Positions 7,325 to 31,777 of a stretch of DNA of 32,000 bases are shown piece after piece. Source of the stretch: Massilicoli timonensis (GTDB lineage Bacteria > Bacillota_I > Bacilli_A > Erysipelotrichales > Erysipelotrichaceae); NCBI RefSeq assembly GCF_900199515.1, contig NZ_LT963434.1, positions 1,143,272 through 1,175,271 on the forward strand, in the 5' to 3' direction. The notes under the pieces are model-generated. The model worked only from the letters and a program-made list of their open reading frames with translations. It made no database searches and was not told where the DNA came from. Made by a program: the position numbers and the translations under genes. The first letter of the stretch is position 1. Each line of letters opens with the position of its first letter.

Positions 7325-7954
7325 TTACTGGATGTCTTTGACCGCCAGCCCATAGATCGATTCAGGATCGATGAGCCGATCACCTTTGCTTACTACGATA
7401 TGCACATGATTGCCCAGATCCTTTCCATAAATATTCACGCCCGCCTGTGCGATGACATCGCCCTGTTTGATTGCATCGCCCGCCTGCAGCGTCGGAGCGC
7501 TCAAAGACTGATACGTAATGGTCAGATCATCGCTTTTGACCTTTACCGTATGTCCGAACATGGCATCTTCTTTTACTTCCTCCACGCTGCCGCTGAAAAT
7601 CGCCAACACATCAAACGCCTCATTTTGATAAGCATAGTCAATGCCCTGGTTCATCCGATACACCCCTTCAAACTGGGAGAAGCTGTCTACTTCACTTTCA
7701 CTTCCATCATAGAAATCCAATACGATGCTCGCTTCATTTTGATAAGGGCGGATCGCCGTTTCAGCAGCCTTGGGAATAGAAATGACCGGGATATCTACTT
7801 CTTTGACGACCGGTTTTGTCGCTGTTTCCTCCTCCTTGCCTAATTCATTCATAGATAAGATGCCGACCATCGCCAGCAGAAACAAGCCGCTGCCACATGC
7901 CGCATAGATTCTTGCGCGTTTGTTTTTCTTCGTATAAGCATACATACTTTTCAC
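7325..7954 (-). CDS. spoIIQ: SpoIIQ-like degenerate LytM (M23) domain membrane protein
   Basis: 209 aa with an N-terminal TM helix (IYAACGSGLFLLAMVGILS). The C-terminal LytM domain YRMNQGIDYA...FDVLAIFSGSV...TYQSL...GNHVHIVV..G..IDP closely tracks B. subtilis SpoIIQ as recalled. It lies adjacent to spoIID. Confidence 0.7.
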   Translation of the reverse strand: MKSMYAYTKKNKRARIYAACGSGLFLLAMVGILSMNELGKEEETATKPVVKEVDIPVISIPKAAETAIRPYQNEASIVLDFYDGSESEVDSFSQFEGVYRMNQGIDYAYQNEAFDVLAIFSGSVEEVKEDAMFGHTVKVKSDDLTITYQSLSAPTLQAGDAIKQGDVIAQAGVNIYGKDLGNHVHIVVSKGDRLIDPESIYGLAVKDIQ

Positions 7955-7986: not shown

Positions 7987-8901
7987 TTATACATTTGCTT
8001 TGCTGATTTCTGCACCCTGATAATAGTATTGTAAGATCTCACGGTAATTCTGCCCCTCTAACGCCATTCCCAGCGCCCCATACTGGCTCATGCCGATTCC
8101 ATGGCCGCTGCCTTTGGTGATAAAAACAAAGCCTTCTTCACTTTCCACGATGCGAAAGCTGCTGCTGCGAAGGGAAAATGCCTCACGTATCTCTCTGCCG
8201 CTTTTACAGATCTCACCTACACACAGCTTTTCCACATAACCGCTGTCATAATAAGTAATGGCAGGAAGGGAAGAAAGCGCAGTGCCCATTGTTTCCGCCA
8301 AAGCGGCAGCGCTGACTGCCTTTTCACTTTCATAATTGTCTTGCAGTTCTGCTTCCCAAGGCGAAGGAACCGACCTTAGATAAGGCACATCCTTTTGCCA
8401 GTATTCAGCAGCATTATTGGTATTGCCGCAGCTGGAAGAATAAAACGCCGCCGTGATATAAGCGCCATCATAAGTCAGCACTTCTCCTTTTGTCGCTTCT
8501 ACCGCCGTTTTGATCTTTGCCCAGTTTTCCTCATACGCACTTCCCCACTGCTCGCGCAGCTGTGCTTCATCCTTATAAACTTGAGAAGCGGTCGTATCAT
8601 CTACTTCCAGCGTGCGCTGATAAACATAAGTCCGCGCCGCTACACTTTGTGCTTTCAGCGCCTCCATTTCAAAAGAGACTGGCATCTCCGCAGCAACCAC
8701 TCCCATCACATACTCCTCCAATGGCTTGATCTCCACTGCATCATCACGATGCAGCGTTACCGTGATCGCTTCCTCTTTCTCCTGTTTCCCACTGCTTTCA
8801 TGTGTTGTTTCTTTGATCCATGTTTCCTGTTTGAAGCTTTCTTTCAGCAACAAAAGAAACACGATGACAAACACACCTGCCACTATGTATACTTTCCTCA
8901 T
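7987..8901 (-). CDS. spoIID: Stage II sporulation protein D (lytic transglycosylase)
   Basis: 304 aa with an N-terminal TM anchor. Matches the SpoIID family signature: EEYVMGVVAAEMP...EALKAQSVAARTYV..., AFYSSSCGNT, GHGIGMSQYGA. Confidence 0.9.
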   Translation of the reverse strand: MRKVYIVAGVFVIVFLLLLKESFKQETWIKETTHESSGKQEKEEAITVTLHRDDAVEIKPLEEYVMGVVAAEMPVSFEMEALKAQSVAARTYVYQRTLEVDDTTASQVYKDEAQLREQWGSAYEENWAKIKTAVEATKGEVLTYDGAYITAAFYSSSCGNTNNAAEYWQKDVPYLRSVPSPWEAELQDNYESEKAVSAAALAETMGTALSSLPAITYYDSGYVEKLCVGEICKSGREIREAFSLRSSSFRIVESEEGFVFITKGSGHGIGMSQYGALGMALEGQNYREILQYYYQGAEISKANV

Positions 8902-14848: not shown

Positions 14849-17494
<2,646 letters not shown>

Positions 17495-17497
17495 ACA

Positions 17498-19015
17498 CTA
17501 TCCTTCCAGTACTTCATACTGTTTCGCAAATGCTTCCAAAGCCGTTTTGATCTTCGCCTCTAACTCATCATCCAATTTCTGTTTCGCATCGATTTCACTG
17601 AAAATATCCGCATGTTCGCGTTCCATATATTTCAACATTTCTTTTTCGTAGTTTCCTACCTGTTTTGCCGCAACCGGCTTTAAGAATTTATTTTTCGCCG
17701 CATACAGCGATACGACCTGATGTGATACCGGCATCGGTTCATACTGATTTTGGATCAGCAGCTGGGTCAGGCGTTCACCATGTGCCAATACGCCTGCCGT
17801 AGCCGCATCTAAGTCGCTTCCGAATTTCGCAAACGCCTGCATTTCCGCATACTGTGCCAGCTCCAGTTTCAAAGAGCCGGATACCTGCTTCATCGCCTTG
17901 ATCTGCGCCGCACTGCCGACACGAGATACCGAAAGACCGCTGTCTACCGCCGGACGAATACCGGCATTAAACAATTCGCTCTGCAAGAAAATCTGTCCAT
18001 CGGTAATGGAAATGACATTGGTCGGAATATAGGCGGAAATATCGCCTGCCTGTGTTTCAATGATCGGCAAAGCCGTCAAGCTGCCTCCGCCCAGTTCATC
18101 ATTTAATTTCGCCGCACGCTCCAATAAACGGCTGTGCAGATAGAAGACATCGCCCGGATATGCTTCACGTCCCGGCGGGCGTTTCAGAAGCAGCGACATC
18201 GTACGGTATGCGACCGCATGTTTGCTGAGATCGTCATAAACGATCAGCACGTCTTCGCCCTTTTCCATCCACTCTTCACCGATCGCACAGCCCGCATAAG
18301 GCGCAATATACTGCAGCGGCGCCGGTTCACTCGCTGTGGAAGATACGATCGTCGTATATTCCATGGCACCATAACTGCGCAGTTTTTCCACGATCTGTGC
18401 AACCGTGCTGGCTTTCTGACCGATTGCCACATAAATACATTTTACATTTTTTCCTTTTTGATTGATGATCGTATCGATCGCAATCGCCGTTTTACCGGTC
18501 TGACGATCGCCGATGATCAATTCACGCTGTCCTTTCCCGATCGGGATCATCGAATCAATGATCTTGAGTCCGGTCTGGATCGGCTGAAATACACTTTTTC
18601 TCGTCATAACGCCCGGTGCAACACGTTCTACTTCACGATAGCGGTCGCTCTTGATCGCTTCACCGCCATCGATCGCCTGTCCCAACGCGTTTACCACACG
18701 TCCCAGCATGCAATCACCGACCGGCACCTCAACGATACGCCCGGTACGCTTGACTTCATCTCCTTCTTTGATGCCGGAATCATCGCCCATCAGCACGGCT
18801 CCGACATGTTCTTCCTCCAGGTTCAGCACCATTCCATATACATCGCCCGGAAATAACAGCAGCTCGCCTGCCATCGCATTTTGAAGTCCATAGATCAAAG
18901 CGATCCCATCACCGATCGTAATGACCGTTCCGCTTTCGCCCACATCTAAGTCTTCATCATAGCGCTTGATCTGCTCTTTGATCAGTTTACTGATTTCTTC
19001 TGGCCGTAGATTCAT
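17498..19015 (-). CDS. atpA: F1 ATP synthase alpha subunit
   Basis: 505 aa. Walker [10 protein letters not shown] is present, and the alpha-subunit pattern holds over the full length. Confidence 0.97.
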
Positions 19016-19030
19016 ATGCGCTCACCTCAC

Positions 19031-19576
19031 TTATCGCTCATTTGCTGACTGCACAGACTCTTTCATTTTGTTTAACCGCATCGCGGCCGAGTTGTCAATC
19101 ACCAAATCATCTACTTTCACTCTGATGCCTGCCAATAACGATGGATCGACCAGCACCTGCAGTTCCACTGTCTTGGATAACTTTTGTTCCAACAACGCCT
19201 TGAGCGCGGCACACTGTTTTTCATCCAGTTCCTGTGCGCTTCTTACAAGCGCCACCGCGATCCGGTATTCTTCGTTGTATGCCTTCACAAAAGCTTTTAC
19301 GATCTGAAAAAAACTCACAAAACGTCCTTTATCGATCAACAGCTTCATAAAATTCATGAGGCTGTGATCTGTATCGGCACCGTACACTTGCACAAGCAGT
19401 TCCTTTTTTTCAGCCTTGGCAACCCTTGGATGATTCAAGATCTTTACGAAATCACCATGTTCCCTAAGCGATGCCGCAATCGCCGTCAGCTGTTCTTTAT
19501 AAACATCTAAACGCTGTTCCTCTTTGCCTAATGCAAACAGCGCCTGCGCATAAGCGTTCGCGGCTATGCCTGCCAT
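19031..19576 (-). CDS. atpH: F1 ATP synthase delta (OSCP) subunit
   Basis: 181 aa. The N-terminus .A..YA.ALF....E is OSCP-like, and the gene sits between atpF and atpA. Confidence 0.9.
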   Translation of the reverse strand: MAGIAANAYAQALFALGKEEQRLDVYKEQLTAIAASLREHGDFVKILNHPRVAKAEKKELLVQVYGADTDHSLMNFMKLLIDKGRFVSFFQIVKAFVKAYNEEYRIAVALVRSAQELDEKQCAALKALLEQKLSKTVELQVLVDPSLLAGIRVKVDDLVIDNSAAMRLNKMKESVQSANER

Positions 19577-20091
19577 GTATCTTCACCTGCCTGCTCGATG
19601 AAGTCTTTTACATATTGTTTATGGGTCGCTTCATCCAGTTCTTTTTCAACGATCTTACCGGCCGCAAGAAAAGCAACTTCCGTGATCTCGTCTTTGATCT
19701 GCTTGCGGGCAAGCACTTTTTCCCGTTCAATATCGGCAGCCGCTTTTTCTTTCATCAGATCAGCGCTGCGCCGTGCATCTGCCAAAATTTCCCGCTTTTC
19801 TTCATTCGCGTTCTTTTTCGCCGTTTCCATGAGCGCATGCGCTTCCGCTTTCACACTTGCAAGCTGTTCTTCATACTGCTGCTTATATTGTGCGCCTTCT
19901 GCTTTCGCCGCTTTCGCCGCATCTAAATCACCCTGGATCACTTCCGAGCGGGCATTGAGATAAACCGTTACCTTATCCCAGAAGAAATGCTTTGCGATAA
20001 GTACAATGAGCAATGTGGAAATACAGATCAGAAGCATATCGGTTGGAACCAATCGTAAATAACTATTGATATCAAATACAAAACCATTCAT
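19564..20091 (-). CDS. atpF: Fo ATP synthase b subunit
   Basis: 175 aa with a single N-terminal TM helix followed by a long charged helix (AKAAKAEGAQYKQQYEEQLA...). Confidence 0.9.
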   Translation of the reverse strand: MNGFVFDINSYLRLVPTDMLLICISTLLIVLIAKHFFWDKVTVYLNARSEVIQGDLDAAKAAKAEGAQYKQQYEEQLASVKAEAHALMETAKKNANEEKREILADARRSADLMKEKAAADIEREKVLARKQIKDEITEVAFLAAGKIVEKELDEATHKQYVKDFIEQAGEDTWQA

Positions 20092-20127
20092 GTCTTATCT
20101 GTCCTCCTTCTCTTCTAAAATGCGTGA

Positions 20128-20385
<258 letters not shown>

Positions 20386-20420
20386 TCAACTAATCGTCTT
20401 TTTATGTAGTTCTGTTTTTA

Positions 20421-21113
20421 CTATTCACCTTCACACACCTGCTCGCTCAAGAAGAAGCTTGCCAGCGTAAAGAAGATATAAGTCTGAATCAGACCTGAGA
20501 AAATATCAAAATATGCGTGCAGCAGCGGGGTAAACAGATAACCCAGCGCACCGAACGGCATAAACGATGTCATCATGTAGTAAACAAGCGCCATGATGAT
20601 CGAGCCTGCCAAAATATTGCCAAACAAACGCAGCGACAGTGAGATCGGCAGAGCCAGTTCGCCGATGATATTTAACGGAGTTAAAAAGAACATCGGTTCT
20701 GTCAGTTCTTTCATTCGCGCAAGCAGCCCGCCTTTTCTGATTCCGTTATACTGAATCAGCAGAAACATCATAAGCGCCAGTGTTACATTCACGCTCAGAT
20801 TTGATGTCGGCGGCTGTAAGCCCAACAGTCCCAGCAGATTGCTCATCGCCATCATCATCGTCAGCGTTCCTAAAAACGGCAAATAACGATGTGTTTTTTC
20901 TTTCAGGTTATCGCCGATGATGCTCATGCACGTGTTATACAGCATTTCCACCATCAATACGATGCCTTTCGGCGCCTGCGTCGGATCTGCTTTTTCAAAC
21001 TTTTTGCCCCATATCACAAGCAGCACACACAGAATGACACATAGGCCCAGCCAATTAACAACTGATTGGGGAATCTCAAGGACAAATGAGCCAACTGTGA
21101 TCACAAAGTCCAT
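20421..21113 (-). CDS. atpB: Fo ATP synthase a subunit
   Basis: 230 aa. The essential-Arg helix LSLRLFGNILAG is present, in a multi-TM protein. Confidence 0.95.
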   Translation of the reverse strand: MDFVITVGSFVLEIPQSVVNWLGLCVILCVLLVIWGKKFEKADPTQAPKGIVLMVEMLYNTCMSIIGDNLKEKTHRYLPFLGTLTMMMAMSNLLGLLGLQPPTSNLSVNVTLALMMFLLIQYNGIRKGGLLARMKELTEPMFFLTPLNIIGELALPISLSLRLFGNILAGSIIMALVYYMMTSFMPFGALGYLFTPLLHAYFDIFSGLIQTYIFFTLASFFLSEQVCEGE

Positions 21114-21481
21114 TATTCAGCCTCCTTTCTGTGCATCCACACATATAAAAGTATTGCGACTTTGTGGCAGGAAAAACCCACCAGCATCGCCAATATATCA
21201 ACGCCTGCATAGGCGCTAATACCAAACACCAATAAATACAGCACATAGCGCTTCGCATATTCCGAGAATGCCGGCAGCTTCAGATCGGTTACGCTGCCAT
21301 CGATCCGCTCGCTCATCGCAATGATCTTCTGAAAGCCAAGCACCCCGCTTAATGCACCGATCGCCACACCGGCGGGAACGTATTTATATTCCTGTGTAAG
21401 CAGCGCCATGGCTGCCATGGCAATCGCCATCAAAAGCCAAGTCAATTGCCGGATCCCGCGGTACATTCGTTTTTCATTCAT
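21113..21481 (-). CDS. atpI: ATP synthase protein I (AtpI-like)
   Basis: 122 aa hydrophobic protein immediately upstream of atpB with a 1-nt overlap. Size and topology fit AtpI. Confidence 0.65.
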   Translation of the reverse strand: MNEKRMYRGIRQLTWLLMAIAMAAMALLTQEYKYVPAGVAIGALSGVLGFQKIIAMSERIDGSVTDLKLPAFSEYAKRYVLYLLVFGISAYAGVDILAMLVGFSCHKVAILLYVWMHRKEAE

Positions 21482-22516: not shown

Positions 22517-24502
22517 TCAAAATTCAGGGAAATTTCGTATATAGTTTTCTAAACAACTGATAAAATTTTCATAAGTCAGATTATGCAGCAGCTCCATCAT
22601 CGCTCTACCATTGTTGATCCAATGTTCAAACTCACCGCCAAACAGCAGTAAATCTTCTTTATGATCATTTCCCAAGATCAATACGATCACGCATTGTATC
22701 GCTTCACGAAAGAATATGACCGGATGCTCCAGCTTAAACACAGAGCAATATGTTTCGCTCGTATAGTTTTCCAGCGTCTTTAAGTAAGCGATCGTATTGC
22801 CGTTCTCTACCGGGTTTAAGGTGTTTCTGATCCGCAGATCGGAATGAATATCACCTTTAATGCCCAGATCCTCCTGTAAACGATCGGCAATGCGATTTAA
22901 CGCTTCTACATCGGAGTTTACTCCTTTCAAGGTGTAAAAGTTCTCTTTGCGGAAAATCTTTTTGAGCTTTGCCAGTTTTTCTTCGATGCGATAGTAGCAC
23001 AGCGCACTGGCGATCTCATCATGCTTTGATATTTTGAAATCAAAGTGCACCACCGGCGTATTGGTCGATTCAAACTCTTCTGCCGGCAAGTCGGTAATGA
23101 TGAAATCATACTGTCCGAACTGAATATCATTTTTCTGATATTGCTCATATACTTTGATATCTCTGATAAAGCGATTAAAACGCTGTACCGTCGCTTCGAC
23201 GATGCTCATCGCCACATCTCTGCCAAAGTAGGAAATCACGGCAACACGGTTGTCCTTCAAAACATCTTTTTCCATGCGCATGATGACCGGAAGCAATAGA
23301 AACGCCATATAAGGCACTTCATTTCGATGGATCTTATAGCCGATGGTATCCGAAAGCCGTTTGCACAGCAATACGGATAACTCGATCGCCAATGAAGAAT
23401 TTTTGATCGTCAGATAGCCCGGTACATAGTCAATGATCAAATTGTTCTGGGCACGCAGACGCAGGCCGATCAAATGCAGCGTCAAACGCTCTTTGAAGAT
23501 GCGATCGGTTTCAAAGGTCGCAAGCCCGCATCGATTTGATAAATAGTGGATCGCATCCTCGGCTAATGCCAAACATTCATGAAACTGTCGTTTCACATGT
23601 ACTTCTTCATAGCGAAGAATGGTACGATAGCCAAGCATGGTGATCCCTAGGAATGCAATATCATCCTCGGTATAGACCAAATCGATTTCTTCTTTGAGCT
23701 TGGCTAAGATCTTCTTGCTCATTTCATAAGAAAATGTAAAATGACAGTTGATGATTTCCTCATCTGTATAAGAAACCTCTTGTCCTGATGAGTTGCGGTT
23801 TTTCAACAGAATGATCGCCAATACGATCTTATCGATCGCTTCCGATGATATACAGTAATTGGCATCCTGTTTCAAGAAGTCTAAGATGACAGCACGAATG
23901 ACCTTTGTCTGATGCGTTGGCAGTTCAAATAACTGCTTGTAGTTTTTTTCTTCATAAACGCTTCCCTGCATATGTAAAAAGGAACCGTGTTCATTCATCA
24001 TACAAATGCGTTTATTGCTTTCTTTGCCGTTTACGATCAAGCCATAATTCGCTTTCTGTTCTAAAAGCAGACCATACTCTTCCAAAACCTCACGTACGAC
24101 ATGCAGGGTCCTGGTGATCAGCGAGCGGCTGCAGTAAATTTCCTCTGACAACGAAGCGATCTTGACATAGCCGTTAGCGGCAATCAAGCGCTGGATCAGA
24201 TAATGCAGACGGGCTTCGTTATTGACATAGGGATAGATCTCTTTATAAGCGTTGTTGTAGATCTCCATGAACTTCTGGAATTTTTCTTTATCCTCGCGAT
24301 GCAGATAAAACCCCAGTCCGCTTTTTGATTCGATGTCGATTCCATATACCTCTTTCAAATGCGCGCTCATCTGTTCAATGTCGCGTCGGATCGTTTTGCC
24401 CGCTGCCCCAATAACAAGTGAGAGCTGACTGGAATTTAAGAATCCGTCATACTCAATCAACTGCATCAGTATGGCATATTGTCTTCTTGAAAGTTGTTCC
24501 AT
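22517..24502 (-). CDS. PRD-domain transcriptional regulator (MtlR/LicR/ManR architecture: 2x wHTH, 2x PRD, EIIB-like, EIIA-like)
   Basis: 661 aa. The N-terminus R.YAILMQLIEYDGFLNSSQLSLVIGAAGKTIRRDIEQM is a DeoR/Mga-type wHTH, and a second HTH lies around aa 100-160. PRD-like helices include KERLTLHLIGLRLR. Length and layout match LicR (641 aa) and MtlR (694 aa). An AGGAGGG RBS is present. Confidence 0.75.
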   Translation of the reverse strand: MEQLSRRQYAILMQLIEYDGFLNSSQLSLVIGAAGKTIRRDIEQMSAHLKEVYGIDIESKSGLGFYLHREDKEKFQKFMEIYNNAYKEIYPYVNNEARLHYLIQRLIAANGYVKIASLSEEIYCSRSLITRTLHVVREVLEEYGLLLEQKANYGLIVNGKESNKRICMMNEHGSFLHMQGSVYEEKNYKQLFELPTHQTKVIRAVILDFLKQDANYCISSEAIDKIVLAIILLKNRNSSGQEVSYTDEEIINCHFTFSYEMSKKILAKLKEEIDLVYTEDDIAFLGITMLGYRTILRYEEVHVKRQFHECLALAEDAIHYLSNRCGLATFETDRIFKERLTLHLIGLRLRAQNNLIIDYVPGYLTIKNSSLAIELSVLLCKRLSDTIGYKIHRNEVPYMAFLLLPVIMRMEKDVLKDNRVAVISYFGRDVAMSIVEATVQRFNRFIRDIKVYEQYQKNDIQFGQYDFIITDLPAEEFESTNTPVVHFDFKISKHDEIASALCYYRIEEKLAKLKKIFRKENFYTLKGVNSDVEALNRIADRLQEDLGIKGDIHSDLRIRNTLNPVENGNTIAYLKTLENYTSETYCSVFKLEHPVIFFREAIQCVIVLILGNDHKEDLLLFGGEFEHWINNGRAMMELLHNLTYENFISCLENYIRNFPEF

Positions 24503-24537: not shown

Positions 24538-25692
24538 TTATGCAAAGAACATGAGCAAGGCGCCGGCCGCAACCGCAGATCCGATTACACCTGCTACGTT
24601 AGGCCCCATTGCGTGCATGAGCAAGAAGTTGGCAGGATTGTATTTCTGCCCTTCTTTCTGTACGACACGCGCCGCCATCGGTACCGCCGATACACCGGCA
24701 GCGCCGATCAAAGGATTGATCTTTCCTTTTGTTAGTTTGCACATTACTTTTCCTAATAATACACCGCCGGCAGTGCCAACCGAGAACGCGATCAGGCCCA
24801 AGATAATGATCGAGATCGTCTGCGTATTCAGGAAGTGCACCGCGTCTGCTTTTGCACCTACGGTCATACCTAACAAGATGGAAATGATATACATTAACGT
24901 ATCTGACAAGGTCTTAACCAGATTTGGCACAACGCCGGATTCTTTGATCAAGTTGCCCAGCATCAGCATACCGATCAGGGATCCAGCAGATGGTAACAGC
25001 AAGATCACCAACAGCGATACGGCGATCGGGAAGATGACCTTTTCGGTCTTGCTGACCGGACGCAGCTGTTCCATTTTGATCTTGCGTTCTTTTTCCGTCG
25101 TCAGCAGCTTCATGATCGGCGGCTGGATAATCGGTACCAGCGCCATATAAGAGTATGCCGCAATCGCGATCGGTCCCAGCAGATCAGATGCCAGACGGCT
25201 CGTTAAGAACAATGCGGTCGGTCCATCAGCACCACCGATGATACCGATAGAAGCCGCTTCCGGTCCGGTAAAGCCAAGCAGGATCGCACCGACAAAGGTG
25301 AAGAAGATTCCAAACTGCGCCGCCGCACCAAGCAGCAAAGAACGCGGATTGGCAATTAACGGTCCAAAATCTGTCGAGGCTCCGATACACAAGAAGATGA
25401 GCGGCGGATAAATACCTAGATCAGTACCCGCATAGAGTAATCTCAGCAATCCTCCATCATCCATCAAACCGGCCAGAGGCAGATTCACTAACAGCATACC
25501 AAATGCAATCGGGATCAGCAAATATGGTTCATAGCCTCTCCAGATGGCCAGGTATAAGAACAGACATGCAATGCAGATCATGATCAAATAGCCCGGCAGC
25601 ATCAGATTCATTCCAAATAACTCTAACTCAAATAAGTCGAAGATGTGGTAGAACCCTGTGCTTTCCCAAAAACTCTGCAGTAATTCAAGCAT
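24538..25692 (-). CDS. mmdB: Na+-translocating decarboxylase beta subunit (OAD_beta family; MmdB/OadB/GcdB)
   Basis: 384 aa polytopic protein. The N-terminus, ....F..TG........MI.I...LLYLAI.....EPLLLIPI.FG.LL.N.P-like, continues into the [10 protein letters not shown] region. This is characteristic of the membrane Na+ pump subunit. Confidence 0.9.
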
Positions 25693-25714
25693 TTTGTTTT
25701 ACCTCTCTTTCAAA

Positions 25715-26089
25715 TTATTCAAGTGTTACCAGTACATCTCCTGAAGCAACAGTATCTCCTTTTGCTACACTTACGCTTGCTACCGTACCATCAGCCGGTG
25801 CAACGATTTCATTTTCCATTTTCATGGCTTCCAGGATACACAGGATATCACCGGCTTTTACGCTCTGTCCGGCTTTTACCTGCACATCCAAGATCGTTCC
25901 CGGCATCGGTGCGTTTACTGCTCCTGCTCCGCCTGCCGGTTTTGGTTTCGGTGCCGCTTTTTTCGCAGCTGGTTTCGGTGCCGCTTTCGGCGCTGCCTGT
26001 GGAGCTGCGCTCGCTACTTCGCTGACACCCAATTCTTCAACTTCTACATCATAAGAAACGCCATTTACTGTAATGTTATATTTTTTCAT
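25715..26089 (-). CDS. mmdC: Biotin carboxyl carrier subunit (MmdC-like)
   Basis: 124 aa. The start MKKYNITVNGVSYDVEVEE is followed by an Ala/Pro/Lys linker and a biotinyl domain with EAMKMENEI. The layout matches Veillonella MmdC as recalled. Confidence 0.9.
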   Translation of the reverse strand: MKKYNITVNGVSYDVEVEELGVSEVASAAPQAAPKAAPKPAAKKAAPKPKPAGGAGAVNAPMPGTILDVQVKAGQSVKAGDILCILEAMKMENEIVAPADGTVASVSVAKGDTVASGDVLVTLE

Positions 26090-26100
26090 TTTTTATACTC

Positions 26101-26442
26101 CTATCTCATTAAATTCATACGTCCGGCTTTCGCCCATTCTGATTCATTCTCCGCACTTGGCACGATACTGCGCACCACAAATGCATTCATTGATTTTCCG
26201 CTTGTCGCCGCAACGGCCGCCGCAATGACCGCAACCAGTTCACTGTCATCTTCCTCCTCGATGACTTCTTCCACGATCGGTGCAGCCGCTGCTTTCGGCT
26301 CTTCTTTTTTCGTTCCCCGATTGATGAGGAATGCCACAAAATCAATGAAGTAGGAAATTACAATCAAGGCAACGAATACCAACGCCATACTGAATACGGT
26401 GATTACACCAGAATCAAGCAGTGTGATTTCATTTCCATACAT
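26101..26442 (-). CDS. mmdD: OadG-like small anchor subunit (MmdD-like)
   Basis: 113 aa. It has one N-terminal TM helix (VITVFSMALVFVALIVISYFI), a charged linker, then ELVAVIAAAVAA, the OadG/MmdD hallmark. Confidence 0.75.
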   Translation of the reverse strand: MYGNEITLLDSGVITVFSMALVFVALIVISYFIDFVAFLINRGTKKEEPKAAAAPIVEEVIEEEDDSELVAVIAAAVAATSGKSMNAFVVRSIVPSAENESEWAKAGRMNLMR

Positions 26443-26464
26443 ACTGTTTTACCTCACTTATATC

Positions 26465-27706
26465 TTACAAAAACCAATTAAATACACCAAGCAGACCCAT
26501 TGCCGCACCGATCAGTACGGAAAGAACTGCAAGACCTAACTGCTGCATGAACAGTTTATTTTTATCCGTTTCAGCATTGGCTGCCGAGTAACCGAGCGCA
26601 CCGATTGTAGAAAGCGGTGAACAAGTTACCAGATGCGCACCCAAGCAGACTGCCGCACCTAATGCCGCCGGTGCCACAGCTCCGCCTAAACCGGCTGAAA
26701 TCTCTGTAACCGTAGGGATCAATGTCGGCATTACGACACCGGACGCGCTGGATACTGCCGATAACAGACCGGCCATACAACAGATAATGGAAGACGCTGT
26801 GTTTTCGCTCATGATCGAAGACAGCGCATCGGATAATAACTGAATGCCGCCGACACTGTTAATGACATTGATCAGCACCGAAACACCGCCGACCAAAAGC
26901 AATGTGCCCCAAGGAACACCGGCAATGGATTTCGCCTGATCGCTGGCTTTCAGGATCAGCAATACAGATGAACCAAGCAGTGCCACAAGCGCAATATCCC
27001 AGCCTAAGAACATCGCTGCCAATACAACGCACAGGATCACAGCAACTGTCAGCCACTGATTTTTATTGAAGGAAGGCACTTCTTCGCCTTCGCGCACTCC
27101 CTGATTTTTGATCTTCCAGCCGCCAATGATCGTAAATACGACAGCATACTGTACGATATGGATCACGACTGCGGATAACATAACCGGTGTATATGGTGCA
27201 ATACCGGAAGATTCAAACAATGTTGATGCAACGATGCCGCTTGGTCCAAATGGTGTCAAACCACCAACCAGACCACCGCAGATGACACACATCAGCATGA
27301 TGATATCTTTGATGTTTTCCTTTTTACCGACACTGGTAGCGATCGGACAAAGCAAGGCCGGCGTAACGATCGGACCTGCACCGACTGCCGATAGGATCGC
27401 CGCGAATACAAAGAATAAATGCGGGATCAGTTTTGTTTTACCTTTTGCCAGCTGAATTACTTTATACGCCATCGTTTCCATCGTACCATTGACTTTGGCG
27501 ATAGAGAACAGGAACGTCATGGACATCAAGGTAACAAAGGTGCTTGTCGGGAATCCGGCGATGATTTCTTTACCGGTCATATCCGCTAAGAACGTACCTA
27601 CCAAGAATGCCATCGCAATACCTAAGACACCGGTATTTACATTGGTGAAGTAACCGATTGCAATCGCTACGAATAGGGAAAGCAATGCAATAAGTTCTAT
27701 GCTCAT
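26465..27706 (-). CDS. Ion-transporter-superfamily permease, putative dicarboxylate carrier (MatC/CitMHS/DASS-like)
   Basis: 413 aa and very hydrophobic. A two-fold internal repeat is visible: IAGFPTSTFVTL (aa 49-60) with ILSAVGAGPIVTPALL (104-119), versus IAGVPWGTLLLV (261-272) with LLSAVSSASGVVMPTLI (314-330). From memory the N-terminus resembles the MatC_N (malonate carrier) family. That assignment is not verified. Confidence 0.7.
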   Translation of the reverse strand: MSIELIALLSLFVAIAIGYFTNVNTGVLGIAMAFLVGTFLADMTGKEIIAGFPTSTFVTLMSMTFLFSIAKVNGTMETMAYKVIQLAKGKTKLIPHLFFVFAAILSAVGAGPIVTPALLCPIATSVGKKENIKDIIMLMCVICGGLVGGLTPFGPSGIVASTLFESSGIAPYTPVMLSAVVIHIVQYAVVFTIIGGWKIKNQGVREGEEVPSFNKNQWLTVAVILCVVLAAMFLGWDIALVALLGSSVLLILKASDQAKSIAGVPWGTLLLVGGVSVLINVINSVGGIQLLSDALSSIMSENTASSIICCMAGLLSAVSSASGVVMPTLIPTVTEISAGLGGAVAPAALGAAVCLGAHLVTCSPLSTIGALGYSAANAETDKNKLFMQQLGLAVLSVLIGAAMGLLGVFNWFL

Positions 27707-27725
27707 AAGTTTCTCCTTTCCTTAA

Positions 27726-29267
27726 TTATAGAGGGATGTTTCCGTGTTTCTTCGCAGGACGCGTCTGACGTTTGTTCTGCAAGATTTCAAATGCGGAAAT
27801 CACATATTTTCTCGTTAATGCCGGTTCAATGACATCATCGACATAACCGCGTGCCGCACCGATATATGGATTGGCAACCGTATCTTCGTATTCTTTGATC
27901 TTTTCCGCACGTTTTGCGGCAGGATCGTCGGCCGCTTTGATTTCCTTGCGGAATACGATATTCGCGGCACCGCTTGCACCCATAACCGCTAACTGTGCAT
28001 GCGGCCAAGCATAAACGAAGTCAGCGCCCAGATGTTTTGAACACATTGCAATATAAGAACCGCCAAAGCCTTTACGGGTAATAACGGTTACCATCGGTAC
28101 AGTTGCTTCGCTGTATGCATACAGCATCTTTGCACCATGACGGATGATACCGCCGTATTCCTGTTCAGAGCCCGGCAAGAAGCCCGGTACATCTTCCAGC
28201 GTCAGCATCGGGATATTGAAAGCGTCGCAGGTGCGGATAAAGCGTGCACCCTTGTCTGATGCGTCGATATCCATGCAGCCGCCGTTCATCTTCGGCTGGT
28301 TTGCGATCACACCAACGCTCTTGCCATTCAAACGCATAAAGCCGCAGATGATGTTTTTCGCAAATAACGGCTGGTATTCCATAAATACACCGTCATCAGC
28401 CAATGATTCAATGATATCCATCATATCGTAAGCCTTGTTCGGATTGTCAGGAACGATCGTGTTCAGCTTTTCATCAACACGGTTGATATCATCATCGCTG
28501 GCAACGACCGGTGCTTTTTCCATATTGTTAGATGGCAGGTAGGAAAGCAGTTCTCTGATGCGGGCAAAGCATTCCTCTTCTGTCGCATCCATGTAATGTG
28601 CCACGCCGCTCACTGAATTATGGGTCATCGCACCGCCTAATGTTTCCTGATCGATCTCTTCACCGGTTACCGTTTTAATGACATCCGGTCCGGTAATGAA
28701 CATCTTGCCGATGTTTTCCACCATTAAGATGAAGTCGGTCAGCGCCGGAGAATAGGTTGCCCCACCGGCACATGGTCCTAAGATTACCGAAATCTGCGGA
28801 ATGACACCGGAAGCATTGACATTATTCTTAAAAATATTGCCAAAACCCGCTAACGCATCAATGCCTTCCTGCACACGTGCACCACCGGAATCCTGAATAC
28901 CGATGAGCGGAACACCGCTTTCTAATGCCATGCGCTGTACTTTGCAGATCTTGTCGGCATGTTTTTCACCAAGTGATCCGCCCAGCACCGTAAAGTCCTG
29001 TGCGAAAATATAAACCGGACGTCCGTCGATCTGTCCATAGCCGCATACGACACCTTCACCCGGCGCTTCTTTTCCAAGCATGCCGAACTGCGTGCAGCGA
29101 TGTTCTACGAACGCGTCGATTTCCACAAAACTGCCTTCGTCCAATAAATGATTGATTCTTTCTCTTGCGGTCAGTTTGCCTGACTGATGCTGTTTTTCAA
29201 TCGCCTTTTCTCCGCCGCCCAGACGGATCTTTTCTTTTCTGGCTTTCAATTCATCTAGTTTACTCAT
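27726..29267 (-). CDS. mmdA: Acyl-CoA carboxyltransferase alpha subunit (methylmalonyl-CoA decarboxylase MmdA-like)
   Basis: I prefer the start MSKLDEL (ATG 29267) over the GTG at 29276. The sequence is collinear by eye with Veillonella parvula MmdA as recalled: GGGEKAIEKQH..GKLTARER, FAQDFTV.GGSLGE, GARVQEG, ANQPK..GG, and it ends KKHGNIPL. Confidence 0.9.
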   Translation of the reverse strand: MSKLDELKARKEKIRLGGGEKAIEKQHQSGKLTARERINHLLDEGSFVEIDAFVEHRCTQFGMLGKEAPGEGVVCGYGQIDGRPVYIFAQDFTVLGGSLGEKHADKICKVQRMALESGVPLIGIQDSGGARVQEGIDALAGFGNIFKNNVNASGVIPQISVILGPCAGGATYSPALTDFILMVENIGKMFITGPDVIKTVTGEEIDQETLGGAMTHNSVSGVAHYMDATEEECFARIRELLSYLPSNNMEKAPVVASDDDINRVDEKLNTIVPDNPNKAYDMMDIIESLADDGVFMEYQPLFAKNIICGFMRLNGKSVGVIANQPKMNGGCMDIDASDKGARFIRTCDAFNIPMLTLEDVPGFLPGSEQEYGGIIRHGAKMLYAYSEATVPMVTVITRKGFGGSYIAMCSKHLGADFVYAWPHAQLAVMGASGAANIVFRKEIKAADDPAAKRAEKIKEYEDTVANPYIGAARGYVDDVIEPALTRKYVISAFEILQNKRQTRPAKKHGNIPL

Positions 29268-29281
29268 TTTTATCACATTCC

Positions 29282-30469
29282 TTATAAAATATTTTTTGCT
29301 TTTACTTCAGCGATCTGTTCTTCGCTGTATCCCAAGTAGTCGCGTAAGATCTCATCGGTGTTTTCACCCAAAACCGGCGCCGGTGTGCGGAAACCGCCTT
29401 TTGTTTCGGACATCTTGATCGGCGTATCTGCCATCTTGAACGGTCCTACCTTCGGATGATTTGCCTCAACGATCATTTCACGCGCAACGACCTGCTCATT
29501 GCTGATTACCTTATCAACCGTATTGACATAAGTAACCGGCACGTTTGCGGCAACCAGCTGTTCATACCATTCATCACTGGTCTTTGTCATAAAGATTTCA
29601 TCCATGATCGGTTTCAATTCTTCATAATTCTGTGTACGCAGCGGATTGGTATTAAAGCGTTCGTCATCAACCAGTTCTTCACGGCCTGCAACAGTCAAGA
29701 ATTTCTTCCACAGACCATTGTTTCCGATCGCAACCATAACTTTGATATTGTCCTTGCACAGGAAATCTTCAAATGGGGTAATGGAAGCATGGCGATTGCC
29801 TTTTGGCTGCGGGATCACGCCGTTTACCAAATAACGTGCAATCGCATTTTCCAAGATTGCCACCTGGCAGTCCAGCATTGCCACATCGACCTTCTGTCCT
29901 TTACCGGTCTTATTTTTGTGGTAAAGCGCAGTAATCGTTCCGACTGCCGCAAACAAACCGGCCGTGATATCGCCCACAGACGCACCGACACGGGTGTACT
30001 GTCCATCGCCCGGACCGGTAATGCTCATGATTCCGCCCATTGCCTGCACGATCGCATCATAAGCAGGACGTTTGGAGAACGGACCGCTGTGACCGAATCC
30101 GGATACACAGGTATAAATGATTTCCGGATTGATCTTCTTCAGATCTTCATAGCCCATTCCCAGTTTTTCCATCGTTCCCGGCTTAAAGTTTTCCACAACG
30201 ACATCAGCCTTCTTGATCAATTCTTTTACCAGTTCCACACCGTTAGGGTCTTTGGTATTGACCGTAATGCTCTTTTTGTTGCGGTTGATGCTCATGTAAT
30301 AAGCACTTTCACCGTTCACATAAGGGCCGTATGCACGGGAATCATCACCGGTTCCCGGCATCTCAACTTTAATGACTTCTGCTCCGAAGTCTGCCAAGAT
30401 CATCGTACAATATGGTCCTGACAATACACGTGTCAAATCGACGACTTTTACTCCCTCTAATGGCAGCAT
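29282..30469 (-). CDS. Family III CoA-transferase (CaiB/BaiF/Frc type)
   Basis: 395 aa. The N-terminus is PLEGVKVVDLTRVLSGPYCTMILADFGAEVIKVE. The catalytic-Asp motif is RPAYDAIVQAMGGIMSITG (D138). A GGAGG RBS is present. Confidence 0.9.
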   Translation of the reverse strand: MLPLEGVKVVDLTRVLSGPYCTMILADFGAEVIKVEMPGTGDDSRAYGPYVNGESAYYMSINRNKKSITVNTKDPNGVELVKELIKKADVVVENFKPGTMEKLGMGYEDLKKINPEIIYTCVSGFGHSGPFSKRPAYDAIVQAMGGIMSITGPGDGQYTRVGASVGDITAGLFAAVGTITALYHKNKTGKGQKVDVAMLDCQVAILENAIARYLVNGVIPQPKGNRHASITPFEDFLCKDNIKVMVAIGNNGLWKKFLTVAGREELVDDERFNTNPLRTQNYEELKPIMDEIFMTKTSDEWYEQLVAANVPVTYVNTVDKVISNEQVVAREMIVEANHPKVGPFKMADTPIKMSETKGGFRTPAPVLGENTDEILRDYLGYSEEQIAEVKAKNIL

Positions 30470-30760: not shown

Positions 30761-30789
30761 GTAAACCTATAAGTATCGTTCGGGTTTAC
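30761..30789. promoter_or_regulatory. Candidate BirA operator (GTAAACC-N15-GGTTTAC)
   Basis: A perfect 7-bp inverted repeat with a 15-nt spacer lies 41-69 nt upstream of the birA ATG. It abuts a TGgTAAAAT extended -10 at 30794-30802. The half-site resembles the TGTWAACC halves of Firmicute BirA boxes. Confidence 0.6.
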
Positions 30790-30829: not shown

Positions 30830-31777
30830 ATGCTGGTAATTGAATTATTGGAAAAAAGCAGAGGGCGTTATTTATCAGGAGAACTGATCGCACAATACTG
30901 CGGCATTACCCGCGCTGCGGTCTGGAAACAGATCAAATCGTTGAAGGAGCAAGGCTATCAGATCGAAAGCCGCAAAGGTAAAGGCTATTGTCTGGCAAAT
31001 GACTGTGATATTCTGTCACAAGAAGCGATTTCCTCTTATTTGCATGATCCCTCTTTTCAGATCATTGTCAAATCTGAGGTTACTTCCACCAATGATGTAT
31101 TAAAAGAACTCGCTCAGCAGGGATATCCGGAAAAATGTGTATTGATCGCACAGACACAGACAAAAGGGAAAGGGAGAAAGGGACGTTCTTTCTATTCCCC
31201 AAATGATGATGGCTTATATATGAGCCTGCTGCTCAGACCAAAACAGCTCAAACCGGAAGACACGCTGCTGTTAAGCGCCCTCAGCGCCTGTGCCGTACAA
31301 AGCGGCATCAAGCGTGTTACCGGATTAGATACACAGATCAAATGGGTCAATGACATTTATCTGAAAGGGAAGAAGGTCTGCGGCATCTTATGTGAGGGAA
31401 GCTGTTCGATCGAAACAAATGAATTTGACTATATTATCGTCGGCATCGGCATCAACTGCCACAATACCACATTCCCACAGGACATTAAGGGAATTGCCGC
31501 TTCTTTGCAAAGTGCATCTTTCATACGGGCGAAGCTGGCAGCCGCGATCATTGCAGATTTTTTCAAAGATTATCAGACACTGCCAAATCGTGATTTTCTA
31601 TCACATTACCGTAAACACAGCTGTGTGATCGGCAAGATGATCCAAGTGTATCAGGGCAATCAGACTTATCCCGCAAAGGTGCTGGACATTGATGAACATG
31701 GCTATCTGATCATTGAAAAAGACGGTCACTTGGAAACGCTGAGCAGTGGGGAAATCACCATTCGCGTCAAGTCTTGA
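30830..31777 (+). CDS. birA: Bifunctional biotin-protein ligase / biotin operon repressor
   Basis: 315 aa. The N-terminal wHTH is LSGELIAQYCGITRAAVWKQIKSLKEQGYQIES. The BPL catalytic core includes Q..GKGR.GR.F.S and the KWVNDIY...KKVCGIL motif. A C-terminal SH3-like domain follows. Confidence 0.9.
   Translation: MLVIELLEKSRGRYLSGELIAQYCGITRAAVWKQIKSLKEQGYQIESRKGKGYCLANDCDILSQEAISSYLHDPSFQIIVKSEVTSTNDVLKELAQQGYPEKCVLIAQTQTKGKGRKGRSFYSPNDDGLYMSLLLRPKQLKPEDTLLLSALSACAVQSGIKRVTGLDTQIKWVNDIYLKGKKVCGILCEGSCSIETNEFDYIIVGIGINCHNTTFPQDIKGIAASLQSASFIRAKLAAAIIADFFKDYQTLPNRDFLSHYRKHSCVIGKMIQVYQGNQTYPAKVLDIDEHGYLIIEKDGHLETLSSGEITIRVKS

Follow-up and report, generated by a model that had tools for sequence, protein, structure and literature searches.

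A 32 kb stretch of the genome of Massilicoli timonensis (the window, as the whole of the analysed DNA is called here), an Erysipelotrichaceae isolate whose source, according to the species description, is human stool, carries at positions 24538-30469 six closely packed, successive genes that form an operon on the minus strand. The operon very probably encodes the activation of a dicarboxylate with coenzyme A (CoA) and its decarboxylation coupled to Na+ pumping, in a sequence of reactions that is independent of a mutase. Malonate is probably the physiological substrate; substrate, CoA donor, transport direction, stoichiometry and regulation are all inferred from the genes. The proposal is built on the content, order and families of the genes, on conserved residues, on the recurrence of the operon without mutase genes, on the replacement of its carrier by the malonate symporter MadLM in sister operons and on its phylogenetic separation from mutase-linked relatives.

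In the proposed pathway malonate would be imported by the MatC-type carrier and would receive CoA from acetyl-CoA on the transferase, by the anhydride mechanism typical of family III enzymes at Asp167, to give malonyl-CoA and acetate. The MmdA-type subunit would shift malonyl-CoA's free carboxyl group to biotin on the small carrier protein, regenerating acetyl-CoA, and the OAD_beta subunit, tethered by the OadG-like anchor, would decarboxylate carboxybiotin and export Na+. The net reaction would be malonate + H+ -> acetate + CO2, and would need neither ATP nor acyl carrier protein (ACP), B12 mutase or epimerase. The Na+-type F1Fo ATP synthase, whose operon lies two genes downstream, could draw on the Na+ gradient, and the neighbouring BioY and BirA would see to the supply and attachment of biotin. 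A closed, mutase-independent cycle of this kind had been put forward earlier from the DNA letters and their open reading frames (ORFs), in what is called here the sequence-only reading. The cycle is supported by the recurrence of the module, the exchange of its carrier for MadLM, the clade of its transferase, the split among the carriers, the Na+ ligands of the pump and the Na+-type c subunit of the ATP synthase, and the Na+ economy proposed with it is well supported at the sequence level. As substrates malonate or methylmalonate had been named; malonate is the likeliest on the comparative evidence, and methylmalonate stays only as a rival.

The first gene of the operon encodes the family III CoA-transferase (WP_102268240.1; 29282..30469, 395 aa, PF02515). 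It is followed by the MmdA-type carboxyltransferase or alpha subunit (27726..29276; 516 aa if started at a GTG, 513 aa if at ATG 29267; PF01039), the MatC_N/CitMHS carrier (WP_102268235.1; 26465..27706, 413 aa, PF07158 and PF03600), the OadG/MmdD-like membrane anchor or delta subunit (26101..26442, 113 aa, PF04277), the biotin carboxyl carrier or gamma subunit (25715..26089, 124 aa, PF00364 with the motif EAMKME) and the OAD_beta carboxybiotin decarboxylase and Na+ pump or beta subunit (WP_102268229.1; 24538..25692, 384 aa, PF03977), all on the minus strand. The public gene call for the carboxyltransferase is 513 aa long and begins at ATG 29267, which is likely the start. Counted from this ATG, the intergenic gaps are 14, 19, 22, 11 and 22 nt, and a Shine-Dalgarno-like sequence lies ahead of all six starts. 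The sequence-only reading had described six minus-strand genes spaced by 11-22 nt, with the transferase leading and the carrier between MmdA and the MmdD-like anchor. The ORF listing agrees with the spacing when ATG 29267 is used, ORF listing and Pfam together agree with the order, and a Pfam check (CoA_transf_3, Carboxyl_trans, OAD_gamma, Biotin_lipoyl, OAD_beta) returned the same six family assignments. A scan for consensus promoters and terminators was uninformative, giving no promoter-like site in the operon leader and fewer such sites than in shuffled sequence.

The transferase matches the Pfam profile CoA_transf_3 from end to end (430 bits, positions 1-366 of 366) and has the conserved catalytic Asp, which together make it a member of family III. 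Its scores lie under the cut-off of every named family III equivalog of NCBIfam (SUGCT-type 345 against 750, YfdE-type 337 against 522, Frc 298 against 504, mesaconate 317 against 700 and CaiB 162 against 413), and on these scores it falls in an unnamed subfamily. The top model, succinate--glutarate CoA-transferase, is thus also one whose cut-off it does not reach; the closest structures in the PDB are SUGCT 9br7 (E = 2e-100) and YfdE 4hl6 (1e-87). The sequence-only reading had assigned catalysis to the Asp of the AYD motif. This residue, D138, is invariant as well, but it is the wrong one: D167, in the invariant motif VGD, maps to D169 of Frc. The prediction of D167 as the catalytic Asp follows from its offset to Frc D169 and YfdE, from the absence of any change at this position in 23 homologues and from the assignment of Asp212 as the catalytic residue of SUGCT (PMC10871334). 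The SUGCT-type family III transferases are promiscuous among dicarboxylates (PMC10871334), and malonate and malonyl-CoA are among the compounds on which they act (PMC8085960, table; PMC10871334). The role proposed for the transferase of the operon is that of an acetyl-CoA:malonate CoA-transferase. Oxalate was considered as a substrate since the YfdE-type model is the second best and the databases label the protein 'CoA:oxalate'; it was rejected on two grounds: an MmdA/PccB-type biotin carboxyltransferase requires a 2-carboxyacyl-CoA, and an oxalyl-CoA decarboxylase is lacking.

The carboxyltransferase scores 675 bits with Pfam Carboxyl_trans, and its best NCBIfam model is the mmdA subfamily TIGR01117 (869 bits, under the cut-off of 998.8). 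It is 69-76% identical to the MmdA proteins of mutase-free operons, as against 64-67% for the mutase-linked ones. Its Ile409 occupies the position of D422 of Streptomyces coelicolor PccB, as aligned through the D422I entry 1xnw of the PDB. Ile is found at this position in the window protein and in 7/7 other mutase-free or MadLM-linked MmdAs that cover the site, and Leu in 2/2 mutase-linked MmdAs. Published work reportedly deals with the role of D422 in PccB and with that of Ile at this site in the acetyl-CoA-accepting AccB. The choice between Ile and Leu at residue 409 is suggestive only, as a candidate marker of malonyl-CoA versus methylmalonyl-CoA preference. Two other decarboxylases were rejected: glutaconyl-CoA decarboxylase, since none of the listed PDB matches (E <= 1e-60) is annotated GcdA, these being of the PCC-beta, 12S, AccD, methylcrotonyl-/geranyl-CoA or MmdA type; and the biotin-independent Mdc, on scores of 84-88 bits with malonate_beta (cut-offs 228-278) and 28.5 with malonate_gamma (cut-off 237).

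The remaining subunits are the anchor, the biotin carrier and the pump. The anchor scores 63 bits with Pfam OAD_gamma and 46.4 bits with TIGR01195 oadG_fam, over the cut-off of 36.05. The biotin carrier (Biotin_lipoyl, 80 bits) has the biotinylation motif LEAMKMENE and an Ala/Pro-rich linker; its best NCBIfam match, MmdC, gives 128 bits, under the cut-off of 200. The pump scores 522 bits with OAD_beta and 482 bits with Na_pump_decarbB TIGR01109, over the cut-off of 190.6, and retains the equivalents of E40, D203, Y229, N373, G377, S382, R389 and N412 of Salmonella OadB, of which D203, S382 and N412 are Na+ ligands with experimental support (PMC7274780). As in Mmd, the set includes an OAD_beta protein with Na+-binding residues, an MKM biotin carrier and an OadG-like anchor. 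R304 and N311, which are reported to be essential in OadB of Salmonella, align with Asn and Asp in the window pump; the Na+ ligands are all kept. A Malonomonas rubra-type Mad system was rejected (183.6 with the MadB model TIGR03136 against a cut-off of 596.9), and among the six genes of the operon there is no ACP or MadA-like ORF.

The third gene encodes a MatC-type carrier, having a MatC_N domain (PF07158, 126 bits, cut-off 23) on a permease of the CitMHS type (PF03600, 92 bits); a search of the PDB gave no solved-structure homologue. The MatC-like carriers of the surveyed loci (designated here by numbers with the prefix L) form two subfamilies, 28-34% identical to each other. Subfamily 1, 43-63% identical within itself, includes the carriers of the window, of L001, L086 and L089, and of L088, where the carrier lies beside MadLM and a CoA-transferase. 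To subfamily 2, with 55-83% identity within, belong the Phascolarctobacterium carriers and those found in mutase clusters. For the MatC_N/CitMHS carrier of the operon a role in malonate uptake is proposed.

The question of whether a mutase accompanies the operon was addressed over the 32 kb window and the called genes of 10 kb further upstream, on a contig with an identical BirA (L178). The probes were E. coli ScpA for the mutase, ArgK and the MeaB of L013 for MeaB, ScpC for the family I transferase and the epimerase of L013. None of them matched anything in the 32 kb window, and the statement of the sequence-only reading that family I transferase, mutase and epimerase are lacking there holds. 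The genes called in the 10 kb upstream extension on L178, which include BirA, BioY, hypothetical proteins, isocitrate dehydrogenase, citrate synthase and aconitase, belong to no mutase or epimerase family. Among 94 loci only L013 and L094 were matched by the mutase, MeaB and epimerase probes, and none was matched in L098-L177. The flanks extended up to 10 kb on each side of a locus, some contigs ending sooner; within them neither mutase, MeaB nor epimerase was found around L001, L086, L089, L096, L024, L098 or L099.

The survey of gene neighbourhoods for CoA_transf_3, MmdA and a permease, suggested in the sequence-only reading, showed that the module recurs in several lineages and in three architectures, and that its flanks contain neither mutase nor MeaB nor epimerase. 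The relatives L001-3 and L086 have the identical six genes and flanks, with transferases 85% and 78% identical to that of the window. A second order, transferase-MmdA-OadG-BCCP-OadB-carrier (BCCP, biotin carboxyl carrier protein), is found in L089 (a JGI metagenome) and L096 (Proteiniborus sp. MB09-C3, complete genome CP127161.1), where genes for a dCache histidine kinase and a sigma54 response regulator precede the operon. In Dethiosulfatibacter aminovorans (L024) the set is transferase-MmdA-OadG-BCCP-OadB. Scanning metagenomes with MadM as the seed, and classifying the loci by protein probes and Pfam, brought up L098, with the order dCache histidine kinase - sigma54 response regulator - CoA_transf_3 - MadL - MadM - MmdA - OAD_gamma - BCCP - OAD_beta; a further metagenome locus, L099, has the same gene order. 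By gene order and family, L098 and L099 are operons of the L089/L096 type in which the malonate/Na+ symporter MadL-MadM (PF03817, PF03818) stands in place of the MatC-like carrier. The role of MadLM in malonate uptake is summarised in PMC8085960.

Adjacency of transferase, MadL and MadM was also found in L004/5, L011 and L088 and in five further loci from the MadM scan (L100, L104, L117, L134, L169). The transferases that directly follow MadL-MadM in L004/5 and L088 are 65% and 71% identical to that of the window. In neighbour-joining trees with 200 bootstrap replicates the clade of the window transferase groups with the MadLM-linked L004, L088 and P0011 at 100% support. The mutase-linked transferases, whose surveyed loci lie in or beside mutase-epimerase-Mmd clusters, form a separate clade B at 99-100%, with the window outside it. 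The pumps show a similar division, the window OadB being 77-91% identical to those of mutase-free operons versus 59% to that of L013. The Acholeplasmataceae, to which L013 belongs, are phylogenetically closer to the Erysipelotrichaceae than are the Tissierellia; MmdA and OadB of the window are nonetheless nearer to those of the mutase-free operons than to those of L013, counter to the phylogeny of the organisms. In three metagenome MadLM loci, L132 (800-11324), L129 and L137, the gene directly upstream of MadL encodes a biotin carrier, and in L132 BirA and distant OadB-like and carboxyltransferase-like genes are present too. This arrangement resembles a mad cluster of the Malonomonas type and contrasts with L098 and L099.

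The MadLM and MatC operons also appear to be regulated alike. A sigma54-type -24/-12 element, TGGCA-N7-TGCA, is common to the leaders of L011 (9712-9992), L089 (9855-10005), L093 (9806-10003), L096 (4998-5172) and L098 (8228-8403). The first four share, upstream of it, the inverted repeat AGTGGTAA...TTACCACT, and L098 has the half-site TCGGTAAC. L011 comprises the transferase and MadLM only, whereas L089, L093 and L096 are transferase-Mmd-MatC operons; between the two kinds of operon, the dCache kinases and their regulators are no less similar than inside each kind. The common promoter and repeat, with the similarity of kinases and regulators across MadLM and Mmd-MatC operons, indicate one type of regulon. 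The dCache-kinase/sigma54 regulator pair may bind at the AGTGGTAA/TTACCACT repeat.

The operon could instead be the distal part of a succinate-to-propionate pathway, in which succinate would be imported, succinyl-CoA would be formed at the expense of propionyl-CoA, and mutase, MeaB and epimerase would be encoded elsewhere. This is unlikely, although family III transferase, MatC-like carriers and genes of the mutase pathway are indeed combined in two clusters. In Thermosinus carboxydivorans (L094; AAWL01000004.1, 1-11185) the order is mutase - B12 domain - MeaB - epimerase - MmdA - x - x - OadB - x - MatC - MatC - transferase; in a metagenome-assembled genome of the Acholeplasmataceae (L013, 5-11179) MeaB, epimerase, Mmd, a MatC-like carrier and a transferase are found on a contig that stops about 1 kb upstream of MeaB, with the mutase itself outside view. 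A Phascolarctobacterium contig (L018), with two MatC-like carriers beside a family III transferase, and the succinate--glutarate model as the best (under cut-off) for the window transferase point the same way. What separates the window from these clusters is the clade B of the mutase-linked transferases, the low identity of their carriers to that of the window (28-33%) and the position of the mutase genes, which adjoin mmd where they are present and are lacking in the flanks (<=10 kb) of the mutase-free operons; the sister operons, moreover, contain the malonate symporter MadLM. The Thermosinus cluster is in itself a complete succinate-to-propionate cluster that ends in a family III CoA-transferase and not in the usually cited family I enzyme. 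Its combination of family III enzyme and mutase shows that the premise of the sequence-only reading, that Mmd acts after a family I transferase, is not general; the main cluster of P. faecium does use a family I enzyme, with the mutase-pathway genes beside mmd (PMC7568257).

It is still less likely that the same machinery serves methylmalonate or another 2-substituted malonate (ethylmalonate, tartronate), with propionate, butyrate or glycolate as the product. The nearest models of the carboxyltransferase, mmdA and PccB, are those of enzymes acting on methylmalonyl-CoA, and the promiscuity of SUGCT-type family III transferases toward dicarboxylates (PMC10871334) would accommodate such substrates. 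The MadLM proteins of the sister operons, however, belong to Pfam families defined as subunits of a malonate transporter. An epimerase, which would be needed unless the transferase yields only the (S)-isomer, is lacking; its absence fits malonate, which is achiral. The Ile at the position of PccB D422, which matches the acetyl-CoA-accepting AccB type, also speaks against such substrates.

The weakest rival has the complex dispose of malonyl-CoA or methylmalonyl-CoA made inside the cell by breakdown of pyrimidines, purines or amino acids, the carrier exporting or exchanging the acid product, and it is very unlikely: it is favoured by L095, where carrier, transferase, amidase and an MmdA-like gene lie among xanthine dehydrogenase (XDH)-like, NCS2 and AllFGH genes, and by the inclusion of transferases from AllF/AllG, cyclase and CN_hydrolase clusters in a 100% clade with the MadLM-linked L011, L098, L100 and L134, but the window has no such catabolic neighbours, in L098, L099 and L011 the partner, a symporter for uptake, is controlled by a dCache sensor kinase, suggesting that an external ligand is sensed, and a CoA-transferase would be required only where the free acid is the starting point.

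The loci just mentioned have features of their own. The transferases of L006, L007 (4854-11176), L008 and L010, 58-62% identical to that of the window, lie in conserved clusters; L007 is annotated, with an AllF(FdrA)-like protein, AllG, a cyclase-family hydrolase and a CN_hydrolase, and L006, L008 and L010 match it in ORF sizes only. The transferases of L006 and L007 are the ones that share the 100% supported clade of L011, L098, L100 and L134, and the public label 'CoA:oxalate CoA-transferase' on enzymes of the L007 type may be wrong or incomplete. In L095 (4042-21272, metagenome; carrier cluster P0189, named after Anaerotruncus colihominis) the XDH-like subunits and an NCS2 transporter resembling uracil permease are accompanied by a subfamily-1 MatC carrier - deep-branching family III transferase - amidase - MmdA-like - PucR - AllH/AllF/AllG. 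The amidase found no support as a malonamidase E2-like enzyme, its best PDB matches being GatA and peptide amidases of a generic kind. Oxalurate has its malonyl homologue in ureidomalonate, and L095 may represent an anaerobic route from pyrimidines or ureides to malonate through such a 'malonurate' analogue. Speculatively, the clade that joins MadLM-linked transferases to those of AllF/AllG, cyclase and CN_hydrolase clusters would link the breakdown of N-heterocycles to malonate; a literature search found no paper on a link from N-heterocycles (pyrimidines, ureides) to malonate.

Several observations weigh against malonate and against the distinctness of the operon. The family III transferase by itself is not what sets the operon apart, because it also occurs with a MatC-like carrier, Mmd and mutase in the Negativicutes-type clusters; transferases 57-63% identical to that of the window lie within the full (L094) or beside the partial (L013) mutase-MeaB-epimerase-Mmd cluster, so that family III enzymes can evidently serve succinate. 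Methylmalonyl-CoA decarboxylases are reported to accept both malonyl-CoA and methylmalonyl-CoA, and the decarboxylase therefore does not fix the substrate. Neither does the carrier, as the sequence of MatC_N carriers cannot predict their specificity: a subfamily-1 carrier sits with a 2-oxoacid:ferredoxin oxidoreductase in Desulfosporosinus (L097), and in L092 a subfamily-2, mutase-type carrier is paired with OadB, malic enzyme and a transferase that falls within the 100% clade of the window in spite of that carrier. The deep nodes of the transferase trees, which are neighbour-joining only, have bootstrap values below 45%. The correlation of Ile and Leu at the PccB D422 position leans on just two mutase-linked sequences, and the MmdA-like protein of L095 has Leu there with no mutase nearby. 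The species description of M. timonensis holds no malonate or succinate phenotype.

Downstream of the operon follow, in this order, a gene for a transcriptional regulator of the Mga/PRD/EIIA type, upp and the complete set of F1Fo ATP synthase genes. The regulator gene (22517..24502, minus strand, 661 aa; Pfam Mga, PRD, HTH_11 and PTS_EIIA_2) begins 35 nt beyond the pump gene, and regulators of the same kind occupy the same position in L001 (44% identity) and L086 (37%); it is possibly the regulator of the operon or its seventh gene. The order operon-regulator-upp-atp is retained in L001 and L086. The ATP synthase genes atpI-B-E-F-H-A-G-D-C, identified by Pfam, lie at 14849..21481 on the minus strand, and the c subunit encoded by atpE (20128-20370, minus strand) has the Na+-binding signature Q...ETTGIY. 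Its top four PDB matches are all Na+-dependent rings (Acetobacterium woodii 4bem c1/c2, Fusobacterium nucleatum 3zk1, Ilyobacter tartaricus 1yce), the E-values running from 2e-44 to 1.5e-22, as against 3e-14 or weaker for H+ rings.

On the other side, birA (30830..31777, plus strand) is divergent from the operon and encodes a bifunctional biotin ligase/repressor (Pfam BPL_LplA_LipB, HTH_11 and BPL_C; TIGR00121 173 bits, cut-off 83.1). The next gene, beyond the window, is bioY, as seen in L178 and likewise in L001 and L086. An inverted repeat, GTAAACC-N15-GGTTTAC, with 7 nt arms of 100% complementarity, lies at 30761..30789, about 40 nt upstream of birA. With its likeness to the bioO operator of E. 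coli, the repeat is a candidate BirA operator, and as such it would put birA-bioY, and perhaps the divergent operon, under biotin control. Elsewhere in the window SpoIID, a phosphatase with a SpoIIE domain and an M23 peptidase are encoded at 2294-4123, 7325-7954 and 7987-8901, adjoining mreB. The G+C content of the window is 40-49%; the species description of M. timonensis gives 53% and a non-spore-forming organism.

If the proposal is true, a human gut bacterium gains ATP from the decarboxylation of malonate by way of the Na+ F1Fo ATP synthase encoded next to the operon. Succinate is left unconsumed by many of the gut isolates that have a close mmdA (PMC11441152), which would be explained by a mutase-independent, acetate-forming pathway, and it is suggested that part of the mmdA signal reflects such a pathway. 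Malonate fermentation through malonyl-CoA has been followed for three decades by enzyme assays, with no genes found assigned, and the operon family would supply candidates. A six-gene module that couples decarboxylation to a Na+ gradient at no cost in ATP is of interest for bioenergetics and engineering, and the swapping of carriers (MatC-type for MadLM) could be used in practice for inferring substrates. The chances are about even that the operon and its relatives in Clostridia, Tissierellia and Erysipelotrichaceae are the genetic basis of fermentation via free malonyl-CoA: a portable Na+ engine derived from a succinate cluster, with a slot for uptake by MatC or MadLM and with ATP made by the adjacent Na+ F1Fo enzyme. 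As a further possibility, the relatives of its transferase that lie in clusters with AllFGH, amidase and XDH would be the sign of an anaerobic pyrimidine-to-malonate route that is so far undescribed.

Among known systems the methylmalonyl-CoA decarboxylases (Mmd; EC 7.2.4.3) of Veillonella parvula (mmdADECB) and Propionigenium modestum have, like the operon, an MmdA-type subunit, an OadG-like anchor, an (A/E)MKM biotin carrier and OAD_beta with its Na+ ligands. The operon differs in having no mutase, MeaB or epimerase nearby and no epsilon subunit, in its built-in transferase and carrier, and in alpha, gamma and delta subunits that score under the NCBIfam equivalog or subfamily cut-offs; the usual adjacency to mutase and epimerase genes is not seen in the window or its 10 kb extension. 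The complex would work like methylmalonyl-CoA decarboxylase, and its sub-cut-off scores and mutase-free context do not establish it as an equivalog.

The mad system of Malonomonas rubra (EC 7.2.4.4) likewise converts malonate to acetate and CO2 with export of Na+, has a biotin carrier and an OAD_beta-type pump, and its MadLM is the carrier type of the sister operons L098 and L099 (PMC8085960). M. rubra, however, uses a dedicated ACP via MadA and a split MadC/MadD; in the operon the CoA-transferase is free and the MmdA-type subunit is a single one. The catalytic Asp of the operon transferase is shared by human SUGCT and E. coli YfdE, whose dicarboxylate acceptors, including malonate in weak use, are of the kind proposed for it; it lies far under their equivalog cut-offs and in a different genomic context. 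The Negativicutes-type succinate cluster of Thermosinus (L094; partially L013) shares six protein families with the operon, but these clusters add MeaB and epimerase (L094 also mutase and B12 domain), have a separate transferase clade and carriers about 30% identical. The operon looks like a mutase-less paralogue of such clusters adapted to malonate.

Sporomusa malonica grows by malonate decarboxylation (PMC8085960). Its fermentation reportedly consists of the transfer of CoA from acetyl-CoA to malonate and the decarboxylation of malonyl-CoA, the latter serving as the sole source of energy, and the same chemistry is proposed for the operon. The system of S. malonica is known from enzyme assays only, whereas the operon is known from genes alone. 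The CoA-ester mechanism of this fermentation was reportedly worked out by Dehning and Schink in 1994, an earlier paper on it being that of Dehning, Stieb and Schink in 1989. The literature yielded no gene assignment for the malonyl-CoA route of S. malonica, and the Sporomusaceae transferases sampled fall in the mutase-linked clade B and not in that of the window. The sequence-only reading knew of no genetically defined operon of this composition, and the literature search likewise found no paper describing one. The operon is probably the genetic form of malonate fermentation of the Sporomusa malonica type. Its parts and its chemistry are already known, and it is not categorically new; what appears to be undescribed is the combination, self-contained, free of ACP and mutase, with an uptake slot for two kinds of carrier, located in gut Erysipelotrichaceae beside a Na+ ATP synthase and distinct from the mmdA-marked succinate pathway. 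The closest known system is by function the malonyl-CoA route of S. malonica, and by gene cluster L094 of Thermosinus carboxydivorans.

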